A DNA stretch of 64,000 bases from an uncultured Bacilli bacterium (GTDB lineage: Bacteria; Bacillota_I; Bacilli_A; RF39; UBA660): the NCBI GenBank assembly GCA_934089275.1, contig CAKOJJ010000001.1:180296-244295 (forward strand). The letters are read 5' to 3'. The number at the start of each line of letters is the position of its first letter. The stretch's first letter is position 1. Positions 25,428 through 47,722 of this stretch are shown one piece after another. Below the pieces are notes generated by a model. It had not been told where the DNA came from. It saw only the letters and a list, made by a program, of their open reading frames with translations, and searched no databases. The translations under genes were made by a program, and so were the position numbers.

Positions 25428-26642
25428 TTATTTTGTGCTGGCTTTTTCAGTTCTTGATAGTTTATTCAATTTTAACTTACAAACTAATGATTTTCCGACT
25501 ACACTTTTTATGCCTTGATTACTACTTTCTTGAGCTACTATCATCACTTTATCTGTCATAACATTTACCGGAGAAAATAATAAAGATATACGTGCAAATC
25601 CATCTCCTGTGCGTTGGCCACTTAGCATTGACCCATCTGATACACCGCCGACATATCCAGAGCCACCTCCGCCGCCACCGGCAATATAATATGATGCAGC
25701 TCCACCTCCGCCGCCATACCAGCCGCCTCCGCCGCCTCCGTGCATACGACTTCCAGATGCTCCGCCAGTGCCAAATCCTCCAGCTTTTCCATTTGCTTCA
25801 GTTCCTTGACCTGCTGTTCCACCACTTGTTTGAGTTCCTCCACCTGCAATAGTAAATTTACCACTACTAACAGAGTTTGTTCCTTGTCCTCCGGATTCAC
25901 CAGTTAATCCACCACCGGAACCACCATTAGTTGTTACATAATGATTTCCATCCCAACCAGCAGCGCCTCCACCGCCACCGGCGACAATCAAAACTTCTTC
26001 TTTATATGAACTATATTTTGATAGAATTCCACGGTTTGTTGTTGCTATATGTGTAGCGCCTCCACCGGAACCACCACGTCCTGCAGTGGCGTTAGCTGAA
26101 CTTGATCCTCCTCCATTATAACCTCCAGAAAGTGAACCACCATTCGTAGATTTTCCTACTCCACCTACCGCAATATAAAGGTTTGTAGATTTTAGTAATT
26201 CTTTATTTCCCACAGAATATCCACCAGATCCTCCAACACCATTATATGAGCCACCTTGTGCTCCCCATACTTCTAATTTGTATTTTCCCGAACGTGGCGC
26301 TGTAAAGGTTTGAACATTTCCAGTATATTCGTATGTCCATACTAAACTTTCTTCTGCTATTTTTTCGCATTCTAAGTAGGCTTCAACATCATATTCAGTT
26401 GAATCATTTACTATATCTACAGTTACATCTCCATTTACATCACTTATCGTAAATTCATCTTTTGCATCATTGATTCCAATTATTTCTGCATTATCTACTT
26501 TTAATGAAGATAAATATACTTTAAAATCGCTTATATTTTCTGATATTTTTCCTACACCATATATATTTACGGTTGTATTAAATGCTGCATATCCAATCAC
26601 CATAAACAAAACCACTATCAAAAGTATTGTCGATTTTTTCAT
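25428..26642 (-). CDS. secreted or membrane-anchored protein with a glycine-rich (Gly_rich/ALK-GRD-like) domain
   Basis: N-terminal signal/anchor. YEYTGNVQTFTAPRSGKYKLEVWGAQGGS...GGSGGYSVG...LYIAVGG matches the bacterial glycine-rich protein family pattern. The N-terminal ~95 aa are homologous to the DGR target 43512..44381. Confidence 0.75.
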   Translation of the reverse strand: MKKSTILLIVVLFMVIGYAAFNTTVNIYGVGKISENISDFKVYLSSLKVDNAEIIGINDAKDEFTISDVNGDVTVDIVNDSTEYDVEAYLECEKIAEESLVWTYEYTGNVQTFTAPRSGKYKLEVWGAQGGSYNGVGGSGGYSVGNKELLKSTNLYIAVGGVGKSTNGGSLSGGYNGGGSSSANATAGRGGSGGGATHIATTNRGILSKYSSYKEEVLIVAGGGGGAAGWDGNHYVTTNGGSGGGLTGESGGQGTNSVSSGKFTIAGGGTQTSGGTAGQGTEANGKAGGFGTGGASGSRMHGGGGGGWYGGGGGAASYYIAGGGGGGSGYVGGVSDGSMLSGQRTGDGFARISLLFSPVNVMTDKVMIVAQESSNQGIKSVVGKSLVCKLKLNKLSRTEKASTK

Positions 26643-26662: not shown

Positions 26663-26699
26663 ACATTTTTATTTTATAATACCCCCCCCGATTTTCAAG
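26663..26699 (-). promoter_or_regulatory. conserved promoter block with a G8 tract (copy 1)
   Basis: The minus strand reads CTTGAAAATCGGGGGGGGTATTATAAAATAAAAATGT: TTGAAA, a 16-nt spacer containing G8, then TAAAAT. It is identical over 37 bp to 44401..44437. Confidence 0.55.
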
Positions 26700-26918
26700 G
26701 GCATTTCTATGTTTACAATATTTTTGATGTGAAATTACAATGCTAAAATTAAATCAACCAAACTTTATCAAAAAAACTCTTTTTACTTCAACTATTTAAA
26801 TATTATAAAAAGCAATATTAATACTTTAATAATGACAAAAATTAAAATACATTTTATTATAATACTGTGTGCAAATCATAATAATATAGCTTAATATTCA
26901 TTTTTATACAACATATGT

Positions 26919-26976: not shown

Positions 26977-27237
26977 ATGTATTACACAGATAGAATGAAA
27001 TGGTTAAGAGATATGAAAAATATAACTCAAAAGGAAATTGCCGCTTACTTAGGAATAAAGCAACAACAATATGCAAGATATGAAAAAGGTATTAATGTGA
27101 TGCCAGTAACATATTTGATAAAGTTATGTCAATTTTACAATATTTCCGCAGATTATATACTAGGATTAACTAGTAAAATAGAAACCATAAAAACTGAAAA
27201 CGAAAATATAAAAGAAAAAGAATTAGTTACAAGCTAA
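26977..27237 (+). CDS. XRE-family HTH transcriptional regulator
   Basis: KNITQKEIAAYLGIKQQQYARYEKGINVMPVTYLIKLCQFYNISADYILGL. 86 aa. Confidence 0.8.
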   Translation: MYYTDRMKWLRDMKNITQKEIAAYLGIKQQQYARYEKGINVMPVTYLIKLCQFYNISADYILGLTSKIETIKTENENIKEKELVTS

Positions 27238-27245
27238 TTCTTTTT

Positions 27246-30200
27246 TTAAAATAATGATAATTGGTTAGACTCACTTAGGCCGTCTAAACAACCTAAAGCT
27301 TTAAGTCTTTCAATCGAAGATCCATTAACCTTTCCACGTTTTTGTAAATCTTCTTGAGATATAAAAGGTGCCTCTTCCCTTGCTTTAATTATTTCTTTAG
27401 CAACGTTTTCTCCAAGTCCATCTAATGCACAGAACGGAATAATTAAACCTTTTCCATCTTCTGTGATTACAAACTTTTTAGCATCACTTTTTTCAATGTC
27501 AATATTTTTAAAGTATATACCTCTTGCTGCTGCTTCAAGACAAATACATAAAGTATCACGCGTATCAGTTTCTTTGTTACTTGCTAAATTTCCTTTTGCA
27601 TCAATTTCATCAATCTTTTCGCGTATAGCATTTTCTCCTCTAATCATCGAAGGTATATCAAATGCATCTCTTCTTATTGATAGGTATGCACAATAATACC
27701 AAATTGGATGATGAACTTTAAACCATGCAATTCTAAAAGCACTTGTAACATATGCAGTGGCATGCGCTTTTGGGAACATGTATTTTATTTTTCTACATGA
27801 TTCAATATACCATTCTGGAATATTATATTCTCTTAAGAACGCAGCATGTTCTGCCCAAGTTGCAGGATCTTTACTAGGTTTTCCTTTACGAACAAACTCC
27901 ATTATTTTGAAGGCTTTTCCTGCTGGAACTCCCCATTGAATTAAATTAACCATGATATCGTCACGACATCCAATAACATTTTTAAATGGAACTTGAATAT
28001 TTCCGTTTTCATCAGGTGTACACAAGTCTCTTGCATTACCTAACCATACATCAGTACCATGTGAAAGACCAGATATTTTAATAAGTTCGGCAAACGTCGT
28101 TGGTTTTGTTTCTTCAAGCATTCCAAGTAAGAAAGATGTTCCAAATTCAGGTACTCCAAGAGTTCCCGTTGGACAATATTTAACTCCATCCTTACTCGTT
28201 AAGCCTCTAAGACGAGTTTTTTCAACTCCTAAAACTTCTGGACCTGTAAATATTTTCATTGTATCACGGTCACCTAAATCAATTTTAGTGACATCTATAC
28301 CCGAAAGATCTTGCAACATTTTTAATACGGTTGGATCATCGTGTCCAAGTATATCCAGTTTTAAAAGGTCAGCATCAATTGCATGGTAATCAAAGTGTGT
28401 AGTTCTCCAAGCAACTGTTGGATCATCAGCTGGATATTGAAATGGCGTAAAATCCCAAATGTCTTTATATCCTGGAACAACTACGATTCCACCTGGGTGT
28501 TGTCCAGTTGTTCTTTTAACTCCCGTACATCCAACTGCCATTCTCTCAACCTCTGGTATACGAATAAACGATTTAACCAAACCTTTTTTTCTAAGTTCAT
28601 CTTTGCTTGTTACTGAAAGACCAAAACATGCACACTCAATAGTTAATTCATTATACATTACATCTTCATAATAACCTTGAACATAACCAAACGCTGTCTT
28701 ATCAGCAACCGTACCAATAGTTCCGGCACGATAAACATTATCTGTACCAAACAAAACTTTTGTATATTCATGCGCACTGGCTTGATTATCTCCTGAGAAG
28801 TTAAGGTCTATATCTGGAACTTTTTCTCCAGCAAATCCTAAGAATGTTGCAAATGGCATGTCATTTCCTTGATGAATCATTTGAGTTCCACATTTTGGAC
28901 AATTAGTTTCTGGCAAATCGAATCCACTTGGATAATTTTCAGAATAAGGATGACCATCTTTATCATTGAATTCACTATATTGACAATTTGGACAATAATA
29001 ATGTGCTGGAAGACCATTACATTCTGTAATACCCATCATACTTGCAACAAATGAAGAACCAACTGAACCACGTGATCCAACTAAATATCCATCATCATTT
29101 GAGTGTTTAACAAGTTTTTGAGCTATCAAGTAAATAACGTCAAATCCTCCACCAATAATTCCTGTTAGCTGAGCTTTCGCTTCTTCTATAGCCTCTTCAT
29201 CTGTTAATTCTTTATCACTAAGTCTTTTAACTTGTTCTTTTTTTAAATTAACTACTCCGTCATATCCGCTCATTATTACATCATGAAGTGTTGGAGTAAA
29301 TATTGCTTTTTTCTCTTCTTCACTCATTTCCGGATGTTCAATATCAATTTTTTCTTGAACTAATACATTAATTTTATCTCCATAGAATTCTTGAGCAATA
29401 CGTTCCTCAATATTAGCAGGAAGTGGATCTCCATACATACTATGAGCTTTATCAAATACAAGATCACGACATGTTTCTTGAGAATGTTCAATTATTGGAG
29501 AATATGGTTTATCAGGATAAACTACTACTTCAATCTCCTCCAACATATCAATTATTTTATTTGGATTCTCAATAACTATTTCATGAATTAAATCTCGATC
29601 ATTTAACCATGCAAATTCATCTAACATTTCTCTTGTAGTTCTAAAGAATTGATTAGGAATATGTCCCATTTTAGGAATTTCACTTTTAGTATATTTGCAT
29701 AAAAGCGAATAAGTTCCATTAACATAATTAACGCTTACTAAACCAGCTATTTGTAGTTTTCTCAAAGAAGAATCTATCATATATTTCTTTTCTTCAAAAC
29801 TCGTTTTAGCTGCTGCTTCATCTTGATTGTTTTTATCAACGGCATAAACTAAAGCTAAGTTATTGGAAGTAATCTCTACATTTCTTACATTAGTTAATGC
29901 ATAAATATATTTTAAAACTTTTATATCTACACTTGTTAAATCATGCCCTTTATCATGTGCTTGTTTTATAGCATGTTCAATGTTTTCTTTATTAACATTA
30001 ATCTTGTAATCACCTTTTAAATATCTAGCTAATGGATGTCTTCCTTTACCAGGAACATTTTGATTAACAATTATTTCTCTACTGATTAAATCTTGCGGAT
30101 CAATATTATGTACATCTGATGTTGCAACAATTATCTTTCCAAGGCTTTTTGCACATTTAATAATTTTTCTTATTGCAAGTTTTAAATCATCCATATTAGA

Positions 30201-32990
30201 TATATCATGATTTTTAAGCAAATGTTTATAGTTATCAATTGGTTGAATTTCAATATAATCATAGAATTTCATTGCTTCAATTAAATCTTCTTCACATCTT
30301 GTTAAAGCAAGATTAAAAATCTCACCATTTAAACAAGCTGAACCAACCAAAATTCCTTCACGATATTCATTTATTAGTTTTCTTGGTATTTTAGCATTTC
30401 TTTCAATAAAGTTTGTATTAGCAAAGCTAATAAGTTTAAACATATTTTTTAAACCAACTTTATTTTTAGCAATAAAAGTTACATGTTTTGTATAATCATA
30501 AATATTAGCAAGATTTTCTGTAAATGTTTTACCAGGAATATTTTCATACATTTGTAAGAAATCATCTTTACACCAAGGGAATTTCCATACATAATCTTTA
30601 TTATCATATTTCAAGAAAGGATAATCTTTATCTTCATACGTTTTATCTTCTTCAACTGGAATTACATAGTTTTTATACGAGCATAATTCAGCGATATTGC
30701 CAAGTTTCTTATGATCATTTTTAAAAGCAACATCCTCTAGTTTATAAAGATCATTTAATTCAGATATTTTAGTTAAACCTTCAATTTGTTTTAACATCTT
30801 ATTGAATATATATCCAGTATTTTCTGAGTCGACATCAGCACCATGGTGTTGTCCAACATAAATAGTTACTGGGATTTCTTTTTCACCAAAAGTGCTTGCA
30901 TAATTTATAACACAAGCATTTTCTGCTGGATGAAGCGTAAAATCACGTTTTATTACACTTCCATCCTTAAATTTAACCTCAATTTCACACTTTTCTGTTT
31001 TACTCTTCTTATAAATTGTTGGAAGATAATAAGTATTTCTAACCTTAGTTACTTTACTTTCAGTTGTAATATCATTATCTAAATATTCTTCACTTTGAAC
31101 TTTCAAAATAGATTCAGAATCAACTAAAACATCTTCAATCTTTTCTCCATCTTCATCATCAAATTTGAAACTTCCAGATGGAAGAGCTGTATCGCTTTGT
31201 TCTTCATCTTCAGCTTCTCCAGTATCAATACCATAAAATTTACCTAAAGCTTTCAAACTGTGTTTCTTAAGTTCACGGTTTACTACTCTTGATAACATTA
31301 AAGTATCAATAATTGGATTTTCTAATTTTCCTAAATTATATTTATAATATGCCATATCTAACATATTCTTATCGAATCTAGCATTGTGTGCTACTAAAGG
31401 TAAAGAACCGATCCATTCTTTAAAACGTTTTATAACGTTTTCTTCATTATCAGCATCTTTAACGTCATCATCACTTATATTAGTAACTCTTGTAATTGAT
31501 TCATCTATATGTCGTCCTGGATTAATAAGTTCATCAAATCTATCAACAACTTCACCATTTTTAAGTTTTACTGCACCAATTTCAATCATAGAATCACTTA
31601 AACCAGGGTTAAAACCTGTTGTTTCTGTATCGAATATAACAAATGTATTATCTTCAATTAGTTCATCGTTTGGATTGAAAACAACATTAAGTTTGCTTTC
31701 AGTCATCTCAAGTTCGACACCGTATCCAGCTTTAAATGGAACAAAATTTTTCTTCTCTTCTTTTAAACTTTCAATATACTTTTCTAACTCTTCTATTCCT
31801 TCTTGATTTCCTGAACTTTTAATATTTTCAAGAGTTTCTTCATTTTCTTTAATCTTAGCATCAAGATCTTTTTTTCTTCCCTTATTAAATTTTGTAACTG
31901 TATCAAATACATGTGGAAATGATTGACAGCAATCATGATCAGTTATAGCAATACCTTTATGACCATAATCCATTGCACGCTTCACTAGAGCAACTTCATC
32001 ACAAACACCATCCATTTGACTCATCATTGTATGTGCATGAAGCTCACATCTTTTTTCAATTTCTTCATCTTTTCGCTTAATAGTAGGATCATCAATTTCT
32101 TCATAACTTCTAAATTGGAAAACCAAATCATGTGCAAAAGAATCATCTCTAACTTGACCAATAAAATGATACCATTTACCAGATTTTAATTCTTTTCCAT
32201 ATTTATTAAATTCTTCTTCATCACCAGCAAAAGTTTTAGCTAATATGCTCGAAGTATTATCACTTATTTTCAAAGTTATCAAATATAATGGATTACCATC
32301 TTTTTTCTTTAAAACACTGAAGTCAGTAGAAAAAATATAAGCTTCTAAATTTACTGCATTTTCTTCTTTTTCAATTGAAGCAATAGAAACAATACCTTCT
32401 CTTTGATATTCAACTTTTTTCTTAGGTGTCCATTTTGGTTTATCTTCAACAACTACTTTTGTTGGAATAATAACATTTTCTTTAGCAGCTTCTATTTTTT
32501 CTTTAATGTTCTTTTTTTCTTCTTCATTTATTTTAAATGAAGCATCTATTCCATGTATACCAAGAGTGTCCATGCGATTTAAAATTTTCTTCACTTCTTT
32601 TTTTAAAGTTGCTTCTTCATTTTTACTTGTAACTTCTATTAAAATAATATCATCATCAATATCAATTGAGTCTTTATTTATACCACCCAAACTCGGATAA
32701 TTATCTATTACCTCATCTAGAAAATATAAGAAATATTCAAGAATTAATTGACTTGGCAATACCTCATAATTCATCTCGATAATAATAGATTTAACGTCAT
32801 TTATTCCATCTTTACACAAAGTAATCAAATTCATCATTGATTTTACAGGAATAAGTTCTTTTGCGTTAATTCTAATAATCCAAGTTGTTCCATTATCCCT
32901 TATTGCCATTTCTTTAAACTTAGCATTTTCAAATGCAAGTACATCATTATAATTGATTAATTTAAAAAAGTTTATTAGTTTTTCATCCAT
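27246..32990 (-). CDS. polC: DNA polymerase III alpha subunit, PolC type, with large lineage-specific insertions
   Basis: Exo motifs FDTETTG, AHNARFD and HHGADVD; PHP motif ELHAHT; Zn module CPNC...CPKCG; GVKRTTGQHPGG; LDILGHDDPT; C-terminal NQLSLF. It is 1914 aa versus about 1440 aa for Bacillus PolC. Confidence 0.95.
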   Translation of the reverse strand: MDEKLINFFKLINYNDVLAFENAKFKEMAIRDNGTTWIIRINAKELIPVKSMMNLITLCKDGINDVKSIIIEMNYEVLPSQLILEYFLYFLDEVIDNYPSLGGINKDSIDIDDDIILIEVTSKNEEATLKKEVKKILNRMDTLGIHGIDASFKINEEEKKNIKEKIEAAKENVIIPTKVVVEDKPKWTPKKKVEYQREGIVSIASIEKEENAVNLEAYIFSTDFSVLKKKDGNPLYLITLKISDNTSSILAKTFAGDEEEFNKYGKELKSGKWYHFIGQVRDDSFAHDLVFQFRSYEEIDDPTIKRKDEEIEKRCELHAHTMMSQMDGVCDEVALVKRAMDYGHKGIAITDHDCCQSFPHVFDTVTKFNKGRKKDLDAKIKENEETLENIKSSGNQEGIEELEKYIESLKEEKKNFVPFKAGYGVELEMTESKLNVVFNPNDELIEDNTFVIFDTETTGFNPGLSDSMIEIGAVKLKNGEVVDRFDELINPGRHIDESITRVTNISDDDVKDADNEENVIKRFKEWIGSLPLVAHNARFDKNMLDMAYYKYNLGKLENPIIDTLMLSRVVNRELKKHSLKALGKFYGIDTGEAEDEEQSDTALPSGSFKFDDEDGEKIEDVLVDSESILKVQSEEYLDNDITTESKVTKVRNTYYLPTIYKKSKTEKCEIEVKFKDGSVIKRDFTLHPAENACVINYASTFGEKEIPVTIYVGQHHGADVDSENTGYIFNKMLKQIEGLTKISELNDLYKLEDVAFKNDHKKLGNIAELCSYKNYVIPVEEDKTYEDKDYPFLKYDNKDYVWKFPWCKDDFLQMYENIPGKTFTENLANIYDYTKHVTFIAKNKVGLKNMFKLISFANTNFIERNAKIPRKLINEYREGILVGSACLNGEIFNLALTRCEEDLIEAMKFYDYIEIQPIDNYKHLLKNHDISNMDDLKLAIRKIIKCAKSLGKIIVATSDVHNIDPQDLISREIIVNQNVPGKGRHPLARYLKGDYKINVNKENIEHAIKQAHDKGHDLTSVDIKVLKYIYALTNVRNVEITSNNLALVYAVDKNNQDEAAAKTSFEEKKYMIDSSLRKLQIAGLVSVNYVNGTYSLLCKYTKSEIPKMGHIPNQFFRTTREMLDEFAWLNDRDLIHEIVIENPNKIIDMLEEIEVVVYPDKPYSPIIEHSQETCRDLVFDKAHSMYGDPLPANIEERIAQEFYGDKINVLVQEKIDIEHPEMSEEEKKAIFTPTLHDVIMSGYDGVVNLKKEQVKRLSDKELTDEEAIEEAKAQLTGIIGGGFDVIYLIAQKLVKHSNDDGYLVGSRGSVGSSFVASMMGITECNGLPAHYYCPNCQYSEFNDKDGHPYSENYPSGFDLPETNCPKCGTQMIHQGNDMPFATFLGFAGEKVPDIDLNFSGDNQASAHEYTKVLFGTDNVYRAGTIGTVADKTAFGYVQGYYEDVMYNELTIECACFGLSVTSKDELRKKGLVKSFIRIPEVERMAVGCTGVKRTTGQHPGGIVVVPGYKDIWDFTPFQYPADDPTVAWRTTHFDYHAIDADLLKLDILGHDDPTVLKMLQDLSGIDVTKIDLGDRDTMKIFTGPEVLGVEKTRLRGLTSKDGVKYCPTGTLGVPEFGTSFLLGMLEETKPTTFAELIKISGLSHGTDVWLGNARDLCTPDENGNIQVPFKNVIGCRDDIMVNLIQWGVPAGKAFKIMEFVRKGKPSKDPATWAEHAAFLREYNIPEWYIESCRKIKYMFPKAHATAYVTSAFRIAWFKVHHPIWYYCAYLSIRRDAFDIPSMIRGENAIREKIDEIDAKGNLASNKETDTRDTLCICLEAAARGIYFKNIDIEKSDAKKFVITEDGKGLIIPFCALDGLGENVAKEIIKAREEAPFISQEDLQKRGKVNGSSIERLKALGCLDGLSESNQLSLF

Positions 32991-41470: not shown

Positions 41471-42595
41471 TTACCAAGAAAAACTTTTATGATATAGATT
41501 TTTACAATTTCCATATTTTAACAATCCATTATAGCTTGATAACCATTTGTAAAATGTTTCCTTATCAATATAATTACTATTAACCAACAAAATTAAATTT
41601 TTAATTTTTCTTTTAAAGTTATATTTAACTCTAGTTCTTAATTTCATAATAATTTTATTGTTTTTAATAATAAATCTATAACCTAAAAAATCTATACCAT
41701 TTTTTATTCCATTAATCTTTGTTTTATTTATATTCAACTCTAATTTTAACTTATTAGTAAGATATTTTTCTATTTTCTCTAAACAATAATTCAAATATTT
41801 TTTATCTTCATGAATAATAACAAAATCATCCATATAATTAACTACATATTTTAAATGTAAATCTTCTTTTAAATAATGATTAAAATCACATAAATAAATT
41901 AAACCAAACGCTTGATATGTTTGATTACCAATACTACAACCTTTATTATATTTATATAAAGGTATTTCCTCAGTTTCTTTTATTAACTCCAAATTATCTA
42001 AATACTTAATTCGATTATTTTTTAATTTTTTTATACAATCATTTATATAAGCGGAATTGGTACTATCAATTATTCTATAAAGTACTTCTAAAGCATCTTT
42101 ATCTTTTATTTTTCTATTTAAAATACATTTTAAAACATCATGATCTATATTATAAAAATATTTTTTTATATCCAATTTTAAATAATAAAAATTACTATTC
42201 TTATATTTAATTTCATTTAAATATTTTTTTACAAGATTAATTCCATAACTAGACCCTTTATTAATTCTAGTTGCATACATAGAATTAGTATAAATATTTT
42301 CATATACATCAACTAATAAATATTTAGCTATTAAATGGTTAATTACTTTATCTTCTATACTTTGAGACATTATTACTCGAGATTTAGGATCTGTAATAAG
42401 AAATATATTATATCTAGAAAAATTTATATTTTTAGACATTAATTTATTTCTAATATTAATGATATGCTCTGTTTTATATAACATAAACTTTTCAGCTTTT
42501 TCTTTGTTTCTTACTTTAGAACATACTAAATCACACATTTTGCTAATATTATCTATATCATATACTTTATAATAAATATTAGATACTCTTTTCAT
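41471..42595 (-). CDS. DGR-type reverse transcriptase
   Basis: RT motifs SRVIMSQSIEDKVINHLI, ATRINKGSSYG, YLKLDIKKYFYNIDH, SIGNQTYQAF (the motif-4 position where DGR RTs carry [ILV]GxxxSQ), YMDDFVII and IDFLGYRF. 374 aa with no maturase or endonuclease domain. Confidence 0.9.
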   Translation of the reverse strand: MKRVSNIYYKVYDIDNISKMCDLVCSKVRNKEKAEKFMLYKTEHIINIRNKLMSKNINFSRYNIFLITDPKSRVIMSQSIEDKVINHLIAKYLLVDVYENIYTNSMYATRINKGSSYGINLVKKYLNEIKYKNSNFYYLKLDIKKYFYNIDHDVLKCILNRKIKDKDALEVLYRIIDSTNSAYINDCIKKLKNNRIKYLDNLELIKETEEIPLYKYNKGCSIGNQTYQAFGLIYLCDFNHYLKEDLHLKYVVNYMDDFVIIHEDKKYLNYCLEKIEKYLTNKLKLELNINKTKINGIKNGIDFLGYRFIIKNNKIIMKLRTRVKYNFKRKIKNLILLVNSNYIDKETFYKWLSSYNGLLKYGNCKNLYHKSFSW

Positions 42596-42974
42596 ATTTA
42601 AACCAACTTCTAACCATTAAATCTAGTTCAAGCAAATGAGTACTATAACTTTCAAACTTTTTATTAATAATTAAATCTTTTCTTAAAGCCTCTTCCAAAT
42701 AAAAATTCAACATTTGAATATTTACAACAATTTCTTTTTTATGATCTACTTCTTGAAATATATTAGCTCGATATATATTTTCTAATATAGAATAACTAGA
42801 TTCAATAATTCTAGTTTTTAACACTTTATAAGTATTTGGAAAACTCATTGTATTTCTTTCAATATATCTAATTGTTTTACGTGCTTGTTTTGCAATTAAA
42901 AACTTTTCATGAGGTTTATATTTATTATATAAATTATCTAATTTTTGTTTTTTCTTAATATTTACTTCTTCCAT
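42579..42974 (-). CDS. avd: Avd-like accessory variability determinant (four-helix-bundle, 23S rRNA IVS protein family)
   Basis: 131 aa, basic and helical (SYSILENIYRAN ... LELDLMVRSWF). Overlaps the RT start by 17 nt and lies immediately downstream of TR. Confidence 0.75.
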   Translation of the reverse strand: MEEVNIKKKQKLDNLYNKYKPHEKFLIAKQARKTIRYIERNTMSFPNTYKVLKTRIIESSYSILENIYRANIFQEVDHKKEIVVNIQMLNFYLEEALRKDLIINKKFESYSTHLLELDLMVRSWFKYEKSI

Positions 42975-43147
42975 AAGACATTTTTATAATAAAAAAAGCA
43001 GTAAGGATAGAAAACAAAGAAGTTCATGTTATTTACTACTAATCTAAGTTTTCATTTACTGCATATATTTTGTGTTTCCACACGGAATATTCTTATTTCC
43101 AAATCTCTAATTTAAAATATTACTAATTAAATAAAGTATATTGGAAG

Positions 43148-43302
43148 TTCAGGGAGACAGGACTAGTTGCAATTGACAGAACCAGAAGAGTTCACATTGC
43201 AGTTCTCATTAGTCGAGTTATCGTTGCAATTCACGTTGCCATTCGAATTAGCATTGCAGTTGAATGCATCAGAGTTGCAGTTGAAGTTAGAACTATTGTC
43301 AC
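43148..43302 (-). repeat. DGR template repeat (TR)
   Basis: Aligns without gaps to 43497..43651 (offset 349). In the coding sense, 18 of 45 aligned codons are AAC/AAT, and in that frame it reads ...NCNSDAFNCNANSNGNVNCNDNSTNENCNVNSSGSVNCN*. Confidence 0.9.
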
Positions 43303-43452
43303 CAAAGCTCCATTAAATTCAAAATACCCCAAAATTTTTATTATATTTCCTTTCTAATTTATTAATTTTTTTGAAATAGTTGATACCAACCATTTCAAAA
43401 CTTTAATGCCTACACTTTCGTTCGGCACTTTTTCGTCGCACTGCTCCTCAAC

Positions 43453-43496
43453 ATCTTTTGATAAATCAAAAGATAGATTTTAGATATTCAGATATC
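43453..43496 (-). promoter_or_regulatory. two hairpins immediately 3' of VR (candidate DGR target-recognition structure and/or terminator)
   Basis: gatat-tcag-atatc (43483..43496) abuts the TR/VR-shared 18-mer. atcttttgat-aa-atcaaaagat (43453..43474) is a perfect 10-bp inverted repeat. Neither has a counterpart next to TR. Confidence 0.45.
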
Positions 43497-43651
43497 TTCA
43501 GGGAGACAGGACTACGCGCAATAGACAGAACCAGAAGAGCGCACAATGCAGCTCTCATCAGCCGAGCGATCGTAGCAATACACGGCGCCATCCGAATAAG
43601 CATTGCAGCTGAATGCATCAGAGCTGCAGCCGAAGTTAGAACTATTGACAC
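43497..43651 (-). repeat. DGR variable repeat (VR), 3' end of the target gene
   Basis: 22 mismatches to TR, all where TR has A in the coding sense (T on the + strand), changed to C, G or T, plus one non-A mismatch at 43515. The first 18 nt (43497..43514, including the stop TAG) are identical to TR. Confidence 0.9.
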
Positions 43652-44381
43652 TACAAGCTGATTCTCCAAAATGATTTTTCAATGCTAAAACTGAATTGTC
43701 ATAATCATTCATTTTTATACAAAATAATCCATTATCATTTATACATACACCCGTTGCATTATTTAAATCTAGTCCTACAAAAACATTTTTACCTAATGTT
43801 GTATAATTTGTTGTACTTGATGTTGTTGGTGTTCCATATTCGAAATATGTTGGCATCCATGCTACAAATGTTGGTTTTGTTTCTCCTAATGTATCTCTTT
43901 CGACTGCATTGAATTCTAATTTACATATATATTCTTCACTTACTTCTTCTGTTGATGTTTTATCTAGTGTTATTGTTAATGTTCCATTTAATGTTTCTTT
44001 TGCTTTAACTATTGTTGCATCATTTTCCAGTTTATTTTTGATACTTGTATATTTTGCTGTTGTTCCTTCTTTTGGTACACATATTACACTTACTTCTGCA
44101 TCATAGTTACTTGAATTATTTGTTACTTCATATGTTAACACTGAAGTTTGATTAAGTGTCTTTAATTCACTTGTTTCAAAAGTAATTGTTTTCTTTGTAT
44201 CGTCTATTACTGAACTATATACATCCTTTCCATCTATACTTGCAGCTGTGAAGATTACACTGAAATCTTCATTGTTTTCGCTTACTTTTGCATTTCCATT
44301 TATTACTAATGTTGTTGATACTGCTGCAAAACCTATCGACATTAGTAATATTGCTACTATAAGCATACTTTTCTTCTTCAT
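43512..44381 (-). CDS. DGR variable (target) protein; secreted or membrane-anchored, with a C-terminal Cys-rich variable region
   Basis: N-terminal signal/anchor MKKKSMLIVAILLMSIGFAAVSTTL. The last 45 codons are the VR: VNSSNFGCSSDAFSCNAYSDGAVYCYDRSADESCIVRSSGSVYCA*. Confidence 0.9.
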   Translation of the reverse strand: MKKKSMLIVAILLMSIGFAAVSTTLVINGNAKVSENNEDFSVIFTAASIDGKDVYSSVIDDTKKTITFETSELKTLNQTSVLTYEVTNNSSNYDAEVSVICVPKEGTTAKYTSIKNKLENDATIVKAKETLNGTLTITLDKTSTEEVSEEYICKLEFNAVERDTLGETKPTFVAWMPTYFEYGTPTTSSTTNYTTLGKNVFVGLDLNNATGVCINDNGLFCIKMNDYDNSVLALKNHFGESACSVNSSNFGCSSDAFSCNAYSDGAVYCYDRSADESCIVRSSGSVYCA

Positions 44382-44400
44382 ATTTTTACCTACCTTTTCT

Positions 44401-44437
44401 ACATTTTTATTTTATAATACCCCCCCCGATTTTCAAG
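44401..44437 (-). promoter_or_regulatory. conserved promoter block with a G8 tract (copy 2), upstream of the DGR target gene
   Basis: Identical 37-mer to 26663..26699. Similarity continues to the start codon and partly further upstream (shared gtttaca). Confidence 0.55.
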
Positions 44438-44603
44438 TCATTTTGAAGGGTTTACATAAATTTTTAAATTTTTTTACACTTTAAGAAATTTTAACTTACA
44501 TTTTTATTTTCACCTAATTTCACACACCTATCCTATTTTTAATTATACTACATATTTGTTGTAATTGTATTCTTTATTTTTAGTATGTGTAAAGTAAATT
44601 GTT

Positions 44604-44638
44604 CCATAAAAAAATTGTTAAGATATCTTAACAATTTT
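44604..44638 (-). terminator. rho-independent terminator overlapping the greA stop codon
   Basis: aaaattgttaagat / atcttaacaatttt perfect inverted repeat (44611..44638), followed by a T-run on the minus strand. The stem contains the last greA codons. Confidence 0.6.
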
Positions 44639-45088
44639 AACATCATAATCGCCGTTTGGACTTGGAACTTTAACTATGTCTCCAACTTTCTTACCAGATA
44701 ATGCTTTACCTATTGGTGATTCATCACTGATCTTATTTGCAAATGGATCAGCTTCTAGAGAACCAACAATTTTATATTCGTCAGTATCATCATCACCAAC
44801 ATATTCTATTTCAACAGTAGAACCTAAACCAACAACATCTTTTGGAGCTTCTTCTATGATAACAGCATGTTCAATCATATATTCAAGTTCTTTAATTCTT
44901 GCTTCTACTTGAGCTTGTTCATTTCTAGCAGCATCGTAGTCGGCATTTTCAGATAAATCACCTTGAGCTCTTGCTTCTTTAATAGCTTGAATAATTCTTG
45001 GTCTATCTTCTTCTCTTAATTTATTTAGTTCATTTTCAACTTCTAAATAACCATTAGCAGTCAATTTAATTTCTTTTTTTCCTGGCAT
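44618..45088 (-). CDS. greA: transcription elongation factor GreA
   Basis: LTANGYLEVENELNKLREEDRPRIIQAIKEARAQGDLSENADYDAARNEQ is canonical GreA. 156 aa. Confidence 0.95.
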   Translation of the reverse strand: MPGKKEIKLTANGYLEVENELNKLREEDRPRIIQAIKEARAQGDLSENADYDAARNEQAQVEARIKELEYMIEHAVIIEEAPKDVVGLGSTVEIEYVGDDDTDEYKIVGSLEADPFANKISDESPIGKALSGKKVGDIVKVPSPNGDYDVKIVKIS

Positions 45089-45157
45089 AATTAGTCACCC
45101 TTCTTTAATAAATATTTGTTTATCAAAACTACTTTCATAAGATTACTACATAATGGT

Positions 45158-46354
45158 CTAAAAGTCAAACACTTTTAAACGCATCATGTCATATTTTTTT
45201 AATTCAAATGGTACACGAATCTTAACAATCATTTGAGGATGATTAGCTTCTTCCACTATTTTTCCATCTTCATCTAATATTTCTTCTATACGAAAGTTTC
45301 TAGTTTCTGTTGACGGTCCAAAAAATTGAACTTCATCACCTATTTTAAAATAGTTTCTTTCTTCAATTGTTGCAATTCCGTCTTTATAGTCTATGATCAA
45401 CCCTAAAAAATCTTGATTAGAATATTCACATCTACCCAAATAATATTGTTCTTCAACTCCAGGTAATTTATCAAAGAATTGTGGAGTTGATTCACGATTA
45501 GCTACACGATTCAAAATATTTAAAGCATAGTTCGAATATTCAGGAGTTAAAGTATTATTTAAAATTTTATCAATTAATCTTCTATAAATAAGTATTACAG
45601 TAGATACATAATAAATACTACGCATTCTTCCTTCAATTTTAAATGAATTAACTCCAGCATCAATCATATCTTTAATAAAAGGTACCATATTTAAATCTTT
45701 TGGAGTCATTGAAAAAGGTTCTTCGCATACCTTTTGACCATCTTTTTCATAATCAAAAGTCCAACGACATATTTGAGCACATCCACCTCTATTGGAATCC
45801 CTGTTGGTACAATAATTAGAAAGCACACATCTACCGCTTATACTTGTGCACATTGCTCCATGAACAAAACATTCAATTTCTAATCCAGTTTCCTCTTTTA
45901 TTCTTTTTATATCTTCTTTATTTGCTTCACGCGCTAAAACTACTCTAGTTGCTCCTAAATTCTTATAGAATAAAGCAGCCTCATAATTTAAAATTGATGC
46001 TTGAGTTGATACATGTATACATAAATCTATGTTATTTTCACGAATCATATTCATAACTGCAACATCACTTGTAATTATGGCATCAACATGAATTTCACTT
46101 AAATAAATTAAATAATCTTTTAAACCTTTAAAGTCTTCATAATGAAACACTATATTAACTGTAACATATACTTTTTTCCCTAAAGAATGAGCATAATCAA
46201 CAGCCGTTTTTATTTCATCCAAATCCAAATTCTTAGCATTAGCTCTTAAAGAATAATTTTTATAACCAAAATATACAGCATCAGCTCCATACATAAAAGC
46301 ATATTTTATTTTTTCTAAAGAACCAGCTGGAGCAAGTAATTCAATATTTTCCAT
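45158..46354 (-). CDS. peptidase U32 family protein (YrrO/TrhP-like, tRNA U34 hydroxylation)
   Basis: ELLAPAGSLEKIKYAFMYGADAVYFG and the Cys cluster CTNRDSNRGGCAQICR, typical of U32. Synteny with Bacillus yrrO. Confidence 0.85.
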   Translation of the reverse strand: MENIELLAPAGSLEKIKYAFMYGADAVYFGYKNYSLRANAKNLDLDEIKTAVDYAHSLGKKVYVTVNIVFHYEDFKGLKDYLIYLSEIHVDAIITSDVAVMNMIRENNIDLCIHVSTQASILNYEAALFYKNLGATRVVLAREANKEDIKRIKEETGLEIECFVHGAMCTSISGRCVLSNYCTNRDSNRGGCAQICRWTFDYEKDGQKVCEEPFSMTPKDLNMVPFIKDMIDAGVNSFKIEGRMRSIYYVSTVILIYRRLIDKILNNTLTPEYSNYALNILNRVANRESTPQFFDKLPGVEEQYYLGRCEYSNQDFLGLIIDYKDGIATIEERNYFKIGDEVQFFGPSTETRNFRIEEILDEDGKIVEEANHPQMIVKIRVPFELKKYDMMRLKVFDF

Positions 46355-47130
46355 TATTTATAGTCCTCCAATTTAAATACAGTTTTTTTATTTAAGAAGC
46401 CATCATCGCCATAATTCTTACCATCAATTATATCTTTTATTTCACTCACGCTTAAACCAAGATTTAATACTAAGAAAAACATTACTTTATCTTCATATTT
46501 AGGAATTAAAGAAACATAATTAAAATAAGTATTATTAAATATATATGTTCCATAAACACTCTCTCTTGCTAAAAATTTATTACCAGTTATTTTTTCATTT
46601 AAAACCATATCATTATAATCACTTAATCCTGCATGTTTATTAAAATTTGTAAGCAAAGTTCTTCTTGAATACATGATATTATTTTTTCCCAATATTGGAA
46701 GTATAAGTGGTTTAACAGAATTATTAATTATTTCATCTATTTCTTCTTTTGTGATTTCATTTGAAATAACTGCACTTGTACATCCATTTTTCAAATGAAA
46801 ATTAATTGAATTATAATTTACTGCAAAATGAACTTGATTCCAAATAAGAGGAGTGTTTGTATCTTTAAATATATTGAAAACTCCTAAATCTTCAAAGATA
46901 ATTCCTTTAAATCTTAAAAATTCATTTTTAATACTTTTCAATTCATCAATTGCAACTGTATCCATTACTCTGTTTAAATAAACATATGCATCATCTGGAA
47001 TATCACATAAATCAAAAGAATTATAACCAATAGAAAAATTCTTAACAGCAAAAAGAAAATTGGTGATTCCAACTTTCTTATATTCTTCCATTTCACTTAA
47101 ATTGTTTATATTAATCAATATTTTTGACAT
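46354..47130 (-). CDS. peptidase U32 family protein, second subunit type (YrrN-like)
   Basis: Position and size match yrrN, with weak U32-like features. Start placed at MSKILININ after AGGAAG; it is uncertain. Confidence 0.6.
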   Translation of the reverse strand: MSKILININNLSEMEEYKKVGITNFLFAVKNFSIGYNSFDLCDIPDDAYVYLNRVMDTVAIDELKSIKNEFLRFKGIIFEDLGVFNIFKDTNTPLIWNQVHFAVNYNSINFHLKNGCTSAVISNEITKEEIDEIINNSVKPLILPILGKNNIMYSRRTLLTNFNKHAGLSDYNDMVLNEKITGNKFLARESVYGTYIFNNTYFNYVSLIPKYEDKVMFFLVLNLGLSVSEIKDIIDGKNYGDDGFLNKKTVFKLEDYK

Positions 47131-47722
47131 CTTCATCAGACTTCCTAAAACTAACTGATAATCCATCACCTATATCATAGAATTTAGTGACAAACTCTTC
47201 ATTAGTACGTAAAAATTCAATATATTTTTCAATTTTAGTTACTAATCCTAAAACATTTCTTGATTCAATTTTATCTTTATCAGCTACTAAACCATGAAAT
47301 TTTAAGTTATCAGTGATGATTACACCACCTTTAGATAAATAGTTTTGGAACTTTTCAAAGAATTTTATATATTGACCTTTAGCTGCATCGATAAATATTA
47401 AATCGTATTCATGATCAACTAAATTAACATCTAAAGCATCATTAAACACTATTTCAATTCTTTTATCCATTCCTGTACGATTAACGTTTTTAACAGCTTC
47501 TCTATAACGTTTATCATCTCTTTCAATAGTTGTAACCTCTACATCATCATCAACGCTTGCCATAAGAATTGCTGAATAACCAATAGCAGTTCCTAATTCA
47601 AGAATTTTTTTAACATTATTAAGTTTAATATATTTTTGTATAAATTTTATGGAATCATGCTCAATTATAGGCACATTATTAGCCTCAGCATACCTTTCCA
47701 TTTCCTTTATAACATCGTTCAT
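47111..47722 (-). CDS. class I O-methyltransferase (YrrM/TrmR-like)
   Basis: ILELGTAIGYSAI SAM motif and IFIDAAK. Synteny with Bacillus yrrM. Confidence 0.85.
   Translation of the reverse strand: MNDVIKEMERYAEANNVPIIEHDSIKFIQKYIKLNNVKKILELGTAIGYSAILMASVDDDVEVTTIERDDKRYREAVKNVNRTGMDKRIEIVFNDALDVNLVDHEYDLIFIDAAKGQYIKFFEKFQNYLSKGGVIITDNLKFHGLVADKDKIESRNVLGLVTKIEKYIEFLRTNEEFVTKFYDIGDGLSVSFRKSDEDVKNID

Follow-up and report, generated by a model that had tools for sequence, protein, structure and literature searches.

A block of promoter-like sequence with an uninterrupted run of eight guanines (G8) between its -35 and -10 hexamers recurs throughout the genomes of certain uncultured gut Bacilli of the CAG:582 group: the core, CTTGAAAATC-G8-TATTATAAAATAAA, is found approximately 22 times in the genome analysed here and approximately 150 times in the loci that were fetched from related genomes and metagenomes. 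Here we argue, with a probability that we would put at roughly 0.55, that these sequences constitute a regulon-wide set of poly-G promoters subject to phase (or "volume") variation by strand slippage, of the kind known from porA, tp0126 and vlp, with G8 as the likely ON length. Four lines of observation speak for this scenario, namely, the promoter-like anatomy of the block, its conservation at many loci, the predominance of G8, and the existence of contigs from the same strain that differ in the tract alone. The original prediction of a promoter switch thus stands as far as promoter anatomy, functional constraint and changes of tract length are concerned, whereas its view of G8 as a sub-optimal length and G9 as the optimum does not.

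Anatomy of the block

The window, i.e., the whole stretch of 64,000 nucleotides that was analysed, corresponds to positions 180296-244295 of contig C1 in a metagenome-assembled genome (G000; 1.25 Mb in 27 contigs, 74% complete, 27% GC). Two segments of the window (Table 1) are identical over 37 bp and read CTTGAAAATCGGGGGGGGTATTATAAAATAAAAATGT on the minus strand. The identity, which had been claimed at the outset, is borne out by a search of the window that allowed three mismatches and returned these two sites only, with 0.00 matches expected from 100 shuffles. A promoter scan independently called TTGAAA, a 16-nt spacer and TAAAAT at 26698..26671 and 44436..44409, in agreement with the initial reading of the hexamers. 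The impression that G8 was exceptional among the G/C homopolymers of the window was also correct: the two G8 tracts are the sole G/C runs of at least six nucleotides in it. An ATG follows 20-21 nt past the end of each block, with a Shine-Dalgarno-like GAAGGTG or AAGGTAGG between them; measured from the end of the -10 hexamer, the distance to the ATG is about 25 nt, and both the anatomy and the position are of the sigma-70 type. A SigB-type reading, with GGGTAT as the -10 element, was dropped by eye, there being no GTTTAA-like -35 element 12-14 nt upstream, and other registers of the -10 hexamer were dropped because they leave too short a spacer to the conserved TTGAAA (11 nt for TATTAT, 14 nt for TATAAA).

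On the far side of the P0001 promoter, and divergent from P0001, the window carries an 86-aa gene of the Cro/C1-type HTH class (26977-27237, plus strand; RstR-like in NCBIfam, with a match that falls short of the curated cut-off), which separates this promoter from polC. The PolC protein (27246-32990, minus strand) comprises 1,914 aa, about 470 aa over the canonical PolC.

Table 1. Features of the two promoter loci, in window coordinates
Feature	Position	Strand	Basis or remark
Promoter core, copy 1	26663..26699	-	Upstream of P0001; identical to copy 2
-35-like hexamer TTGAAA, copy 1	26693..26698	-	Promoter scan
G8 homopolymer in spacer, copy 1	26682..26689	-	G8 in 5 of 5 other assemblies of the locus
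-10-like hexamer TAAAAT, copy 1	26671..26676	-	Promoter scan; 16 nt after the -35
Upstream conserved element TGTAAAC, copy 1	26711..26717	-	-35-like; about two helical turns upstream of TTGAAA
Promoter core, copy 2	44401..44437	-	Upstream of P0002, possibly of the whole DGR cassette
-35-like hexamer TTGAAA, copy 2	44431..44436	-	Promoter scan
G8 homopolymer in spacer, copy 2	44420..44427	-	G7 in contig L132, from another sample
-10-like hexamer TAAAAT, copy 2	44409..44414	-	Promoter scan
Upstream conserved element TGTAAAC, copy 2	44450..44456	-	Sequence and conservation at 124 loci
P0001, secreted, 404 aa; family-B N-terminal module and ALK/LTK-type glycine-rich domain	25428..26642	-	Signal-peptide-like N-terminus
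P0002, secreted, family A, 289 aa; DGR target, cysteine-rich C-terminus with VR	43512..44381	-	Signal-peptide-like N-terminus
Complete DGR	41471-44381	-	P0002/VR, TR, bAvd, RT
DGR variable region (VR)	43497..43651	-	85% identical to TR
DGR template repeat (TR)	43148..43302	-	TR/VR comparison
DGR accessory gene, bAvd-like	42579..42974	-	Pfam PF22296, E = 4.7e-10
DGR reverse transcriptase (RT)	41471..42595	-	Pfam RVT_1, E = 8.4e-13; sole copy in the assembly

Copies in the genome and in related bacteria

The block was initially perceived as a feature shared by two genes, which turned out to be far too narrow a view. In the genome of the window, TTGAAAATC-G8-TATTATAAAAT occurs 18 times as an exact match, always with G8, and 22 times when up to four edits are allowed. 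The entire assembly contains 33 G/C runs of at least six nucleotides; 24 of these are exactly eight long, and 22 of the 24 belong to the promoter motif, each being located 23-28 nt upstream of an ATG. The only G8 runs outside the motif, C25:7239-7246 and C6:28439-28446, both apparently lie in coding sequence. The former is part of ...LEKIGGGNYILYVSIADV..., looks RNase R/RNB-like and has flanks that resemble the promoter core (CTTGAGAAAATC-G8-TAACTATA); the latter belongs to the gene for a Thr-rich repeat protein, which could conceivably be switched by frameshifting. Many of the core copies sit at contig ends, and the motif breaks assemblies at its repeat copies.

Across related genomes and metagenomes, 124-150 distinct core loci were collected. 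The AATC-G(n)-TATTATA core is present in 6 of the 22 species genomes of the genus, with 20 copies in G000, 41 in G012, 34 in G017 and 3-5 each in G001, G002 and G019, and in none of 19 genomes from outside the genus. Public records with the core come from uncultured Bacilli MAGs (Hadza gut metagenomes) and from 'Firmicutes bacterium CAG:582', and 68 contigs with the core were obtained from human-gut metagenomes. The strain of the window occurs in the Hadza samples from which assemblies ERZ4561222, ERZ27287133, ERZ27287143 and ERZ27287431 were made. In two species that are more distant, G014 and G016, the promoters of the same protein family contain G8 or G9, with other flanks (e.g., CTTGCAAAAC-G8-TATGTT). 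Outside the window, at G000:C1:104089-113320, three paralogous proteins with sigma-region-4 repeats are encoded around xerD. A literature search found no paper on this promoter; for tracing the surface-protein regulon in these MAGs, the motif provides a clean marker that can be searched for.

Constraint on the core

Conservation was assessed over 124 distinct short-read loci. The TTGAAA hexamer is at least 98% conserved, a value that is partly imposed by the search pattern; outside the pattern, the C that precedes TTGAAA and the AAAA that follows TAAAAT are conserved at 96-98%, and TGTAAA(C), located 20 nt upstream of TTGAAA, at 80-98%. In the leader and in the sequence further upstream, conservation collapses. 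Over approximately 150 loci and in front of at least five unrelated gene families, the core is invariant, in contrast to the diverged sequence on both of its sides, and it is kept in at least six species with differing flanks, so that the notion of a block under functional constraint, originally based on two copies, gains considerable ground. At syntenic loci, where the upstream housekeeping genes are 94-99% identical, the same core is followed by other gene families and preceded by another sequence at -80..-36.

Interrupted tracts are rare. Since the uninterrupted G8 is preserved as the norm in a genome with 27% GC, selection appears to act on the homopolymer itself. Nevertheless, homologous promoters without G8 do exist, at L159 (G019), L160 (G002), L053 (G017) and, in G000 itself, on contig C1 upstream of 155881; in these, an interrupted 10-nt purine run takes the place of G8 (GGGGGAGGAG, GAGGAAGGAG, GGGGAGGGGG and AAAGATAAAG), and in G002 and G019 the -35 hexamer of such promoters is TTGATA. 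Possibly, the interrupted runs derive from G10 tracts that have decayed or become "locked". Their occurrence in sister species and in one G000 paralogue indicates that the homopolymer is dispensable for the promoter as such.

Length spectrum and instability of the tract

In all assemblies taken together, G8 accounts for about 90% of the copies, the remainder being G7, G6 and G9. All 22 copies in G000 have G8; among 59 distinct loci of other genomes, there are 51 with G8, five with G7 and one each with G6, G9 and G4AG5, and the metagenome contigs yield 56 with G8, four with G7, seven with G6 and one with G9. Five of the G6 tracts and one G7 tract come from VOFC01 metagenome contigs and were discounted, homopolymer errors being found in the coding sequence of these contigs as well: L074, L075, L081, L085, L096 and L128 combine a G6 or G7 tract with extra or missing A's in conserved signal-peptide codons. 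The VOFC01 contigs look like an error-prone long-read assembly unfit for the determination of tract lengths, and their G6 tracts were dropped as candidates for true variants. The pooled short-read set of 124 loci comprises 111 G8, eight G7, three G6 and two G9 tracts. Downstream of family-A promoters with a tract other than G8, the open reading frame is intact in nine of nine cases.

The original prediction envisaged variation of the tract in metagenomes and strains, and such variation does exist, most tellingly in two pairs of contigs that differ solely there. For this comparison, contigs of other assemblies were fetched by exact matches to the neighbouring housekeeping proteins. Contig L132 (ENA ERZ27287133) aligns with the window over 5,472 bp with no mismatches and a single gap, which is G7 versus G8 in the P0002 promoter, the variable region of the DGR (diversity-generating retroelement) being unchanged. 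Similarly, L152 aligns with L146 and L147 over 2,857 bp with no mismatches and a single gap, G7 versus G8, in the promoter at the Tad-like locus. In both cases, the contigs that are compared come from different samples. The chance that one random difference would hit the 8-bp tract is 0.0015 for the L132 pair and 0.0028 for the L152 pair. Among comparators that are at least 99.9% identical to G000, two mismatches in 56,306 bp are to be set against a change in one of 14 tracts. Both G7 variants are from MEGAHIT contigs, so that an assembly error might account for them; assembly ERZ27287133 has G8 at two other loci, and therefore G7 is no systematic artefact. Besides the P0001 promoter (Table 1), three further promoter loci have G8 in three assemblies each, and at the consensus level G7 is seen in two of 21 same-species comparators. 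Near-identical pairs among the loci derived from the search pattern revealed no difference in tract length, the sample containing almost no such pairs; clustering with both flanks required to match produced one cluster only. Thus, the tract-only differences in two contig pairs indicate that the tract is hypermutable relative to its surroundings, while G8 is still strongly modal. Intact MutS and MutL are encoded by G000 and by no fewer than 19 of the genus's 22 genomes; loss of mismatch repair is therefore ruled out as the cause, and the instability appears to stem from intrinsic slippage at G8.

Which tract length would be active? Exact TTGACA-N-TATAAT promoters in G000 have spacers of 15 nt (one case), 16 nt (nine), 17 nt (ten) and 18 nt (three). 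With 16 and 17 nt being the usual spacers in this genome, G8 (16 nt) and G9 (17 nt) fall within the working range, and G7 (15 nt) falls outside. Consensus promoters with 16 nt being as common as those with 17 nt (nine versus ten) and G9 being found at two of 124 loci, the assumption that one additional G would be needed for optimal spacing finds no backing here. Together with the mode of about 90% G8, the spacer statistics make it most likely that G8 is the active, selected length and that contraction to G7 or G6 would be the "down" move; G7 probably reduces or abolishes transcription. A pure spacing model, however, does not fit all of the data. If spacing alone were decisive, the promoters at C11:10432, C15:8298 and C16:36813 of G000, in which the distance from the -35 hexamer to the tract is 1-2 nt longer, should have shorter tracts, but they keep G8.

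Proteins downstream of the promoter and the DGR

With few exceptions, such as a GNAT acetyltransferase, the products that would be controlled by the G8 promoter combine a signal-peptide N-terminus with a C-terminal DUF6273, glycine-rich or DGR-variable domain. The two proteins of the window had been described as related secreted proteins with roughly 40% identity: the signal-peptide-like N-termini are there, but the relatedness is lower, with 33% identity that is confined to the first 101 residues and nothing alignable beyond. P0001 has a paralogue on contig C15 of G000 with the same promoter. In P0002, no Pfam domain was found; its 166 N-terminal residues are 85-95% identical to those of about 25 paralogues in G000. 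About 18 genes behind the core in this genome are P0002 paralogues that share this near-identical 166-aa module and divide by their C-termini into three types, with lengths of about 285, 397 and 503 aa; the 397-aa type matches DUF6273. The core also precedes two P0001-type genes, the GNAT gene and a 200-aa gene that is located beside a Tad-like locus and is followed by a giant Flg_new protein. The shared N-terminal module has no Pfam or NCBIfam name, and no lipobox cysteine is found in or after the hydrophobic segment of N-termini such as MKKKSMLIVAILLMSIGFAAVSTT. Of the 22 species of the genus, 20 possess the protein family, as against six with the core; therefore, most species use other promoters for it.

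At the Tad-like locus (G000:C19:12352 and contigs L145-L154), the G8 promoter is flanked by a Tad/T2SSE-type operon on one side and the 200-aa gene on the other, and the giant Flg_new-repeat protein that follows is 1,199-1,442 aa long. In three other assemblies of this locus, an IS transposase (DDE_Tnp_1) occupies the place of the downstream genes.

The second copy of the block stands in front of a complete DGR (Table 1). All 25 mismatches between TR and VR are an A in TR against another base in VR, and further matches to TR were found at the remote, VR-like ends of three additional family-A genes, which are located on contigs C3 and C11. A scan of the minus strand between the P0002 stop codon and avd found no promoter-like site, and a scan of the DGR cassette found no terminator-like site anywhere in it, so that the G8 promoter may also drive TR, avd and RT. 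A different DGR in G012, with an RT that is 43% identical, has the same layout of G8 promoter, 505-aa family-A target, avd-like gene and RT. The DGR is ruled out as a necessary partner of the promoter: G017 possesses 34 such promoters without a detectable RT, and in G001 the RT is a pseudogene. A literature search returned no description of a DGR target under a homopolymer-containing promoter.

A proposed dimmer based on slippage, and its alternatives

The proposed scenario can be envisaged as follows. The block would be the core of a clade-specific promoter for the housekeeping sigma factor (sigma-70/SigA-type), with the layout [TGTAAAC]-N12/13-CTTGAAA-ATC-G8-TATTA-TAAAAT-AAAA and then a leader of about 20 nt with the Shine-Dalgarno sequence. 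In a sub-clade of the CAG:582 group, this promoter would be reused by 20-45 genes in each genome, nearly all of which appear to encode secreted or surface proteins with a common N-terminal module and exchangeable C-terminal domains, presumably binding ones, several of them apparently rewritten by the DGR. G8 would set the spacing between the -35 and -10 hexamers to 16 nt, a spacing that works in this organism. By replication slippage, the homopolymer would gain or lose a G at a rate far above that of mutation at ordinary bases: a tract shortened by one G would create a 15-nt spacer and weaken or silence that single gene, and a tract extended by one G would lead to 17 nt and keep or raise the activity. 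Each member of the family would then possess its own heritable and reversible dimmer, in which selection would hold G8 as the predominant ON state. That the promoter is active, that the tract length alters transcription and that populations undergo frequent, reversible changes of the tract is what we infer from the comparative data. Several observations count against the dimmer: the G8 mode is very tight, also where the -35 hexamer is further away, slippage is not enhanced by a defect in mismatch repair, related promoters manage with an interrupted purine run, and the whole spacer is invariant in sequence, not in length alone; a site for sequence-specific binding would look alike.

Precisely this similarity brings up the main alternative, in which G8 would have a fixed role in recognition or structure; the core of about 30 bp (perhaps with TGTAAAC) would be bound by a specialised sigma region or by a transcription factor specific to the clade. 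We consider this alternative unlikely but worth keeping in sight. The predicted factor would co-regulate a surface-protein regulon, and length variants would be rare and mostly deleterious noise, with no switch. Invariance of the full spacer sequence would be expected under such a fixed element, as would the retention of G8 where its distance from the -35 hexamer has changed, the conservation of a second -35-like hexamer (TGTAAA) 20 nt upstream and the intact mismatch repair. Moreover, a lineage-specific family of proteins with sigma-region-4-like repeats is found in exactly the six of the 22 genomes of the genus that have the AATC-G8-TATTATA core. However, these six genomes form one sub-clade, so that the co-occurrence represents a single phylogenetic event into which any clade-specific gene would fit, and the link to the sigma-4-repeat proteins is thus weak, a lead only; in addition, G014 and G016 have their G8/G9 promoters without such proteins. 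A fixed element is also at odds with the homologous promoters that carry interrupted purine runs, and it leaves unexplained why same-strain contigs differ in the tract and nowhere else. Even if a factor does bind the core, slippage control would not be precluded, as exemplified by the tpr promoters of T. pallidum, which combine CRP binding with an effect of poly-G length (PMC7864442).

That G8 has no role and merely hitch-hikes on a recent family expansion or gene conversion seems quite improbable to us: in G000, about 18 paralogues do share N-terminal coding sequence at 85-95% identity together with a similar upstream sequence, and a dispersed repeat would break contigs as the core does, but the core with diverged flanks also precedes unrelated genes (GNAT, genes of the P0001 family, the 200-aa gene beside the Tad-like locus and still others), it is retained in several species with different surroundings, and a neutral G8 should decay at 27% GC, as the few interrupted versions have done. 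Very improbable in our opinion is also the proposal that the core serves mainly as shared homology, or a site, for the exchange of surface-protein cassettes between loci and strains. It is favoured by contig L133 (ENA ERZ27287143 k141_1356374), which comes from the species of the window, covers the locus next to GreA at window positions 44381-47600 and is 99.4-99.7% identical to the window through GreA and the core, with G8; just past the core comes the breakpoint, followed by a gene for 468 aa from another family (MKKRSAIIVAIVF...). Together with the syntenic loci, where different families stand behind the same core, this swap suggests that shared 5' ends mark the junctions of strain-level cassette replacement. 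Still, 30-40 bp offer little identity for homologous recombination to work efficiently, the loci have no associated recombinase, the location 25 nt before every ATG and the -35/-10 geometry are promoter-like, and the exchange of cassettes is more simply explained as a by-product of shared 5' ends. We regard cassette replacement at the shared 5' ends as such a by-product and not as the primary function.

The slippage dimmer can be extended to a three-layer system of surface variation with the poly-G promoter as its master layer, although we consider this extension doubtful. In the first layer, 20-45 genes may each be dimmed independently by tract slippage; in the second, the tract length may also gate the DGR, resulting in phase-variable hypermutation; in the third, the invariant core, perhaps read by the sigma-4-repeat proteins, may double as the junction for cassette swaps between strains. 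If the switching is real, stochastic control of expression and targeted protein hypermutation would act on the same genes, which bears on the way in which surfaces exposed to the host or to phages vary in the gut. It would also be a very large set of homopolymer promoter switches, 20-45 in a genome of 1.3-1.5 Mb and all at one length, in an uncultured human-gut commensal with a small genome, and coupled to a protein family that is diversified by DGR and by cassette exchange.

Comparison with known systems

Pathogens such as Neisseria, Treponema and Mycoplasma provide the textbook examples of homopolymer promoter switches; the opc gene of N. meningitidis, for instance, has a poly-C promoter tract. 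In Mycoplasma hyorhinis, the vlp system consists of paralogous surface genes, each with a conserved promoter that includes a poly(A) tract between -35 and -10; independent on/off switching yields combinatorial surfaces, and size variation is brought about by tandem repeats. Variable proteins generated by DGRs are known from mtd of the Bordetella phage BPP-1, tvpA of Treponema and ldtA of Legionella.

In porA of N. meningitidis and in tp0126 of T. pallidum, a poly-G tract between -35 and -10 controls transcription (PMC7864442). The promoter activity of the T. pallidum genes tprE, tprG, tprJ and tprL is also set by poly-G length; the promoters of these paralogous surface proteins contain tracts of 7-12 G's, of which those of at most eight are permissive in tprE/G/J, in tprL G8 is more active than G10, and tract length varies within isolates (PMC7864442).

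The promoters described here resemble porA in that a G homopolymer occupies the sigma-70-type spacer of a surface-protein gene; in porA, its length sets the spacing and the transcription. Unlike porA, which is a single locus with an optimum of 17 nt, there are 20-45 promoters per genome with one core and a modal spacer of 16 nt, the organism is a gut commensal of Gram-positive lineage, and the switching is predicted from the comparison of sequences. With tp0126, the G8 promoters share the location of the tract between -35 and -10, whereas most tpr tracts lie just upstream of the transcription start site, outside the spacer, in a family that has far fewer members and no DGR. The Treponema data are experimental, and those presented here comparative.

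In the logic of the system, the nearest relative appears to be vlp (Yogev 1991 and Citti and Wise 1995, cited in PMC4198240): in a small-genome relative of the Bacilli, several paralogues each have their own homopolymer-bearing promoter, just as about 22 genes do in G000, 41 in G012 and 34 in G017. The tract is poly(A) and the products are lipoproteins in vlp, as opposed to poly-G and proteins without a lipobox cysteine here; furthermore, C-terminal diversity arises here by domain swapping and DGR mutagenesis, and 3-6 times more genes are involved. As in the known DGR systems, a canonical TR/VR/avd/RT set with adenine-specific mismatches targets P0002 along with three or more remote paralogues. 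What sets these promoters apart from the known promoter switches is the host, an uncultured gut commensal of the Bacilli, the scale, the tight G8 mode, products that are not lipoproteins, and the coupling to DGR targets.
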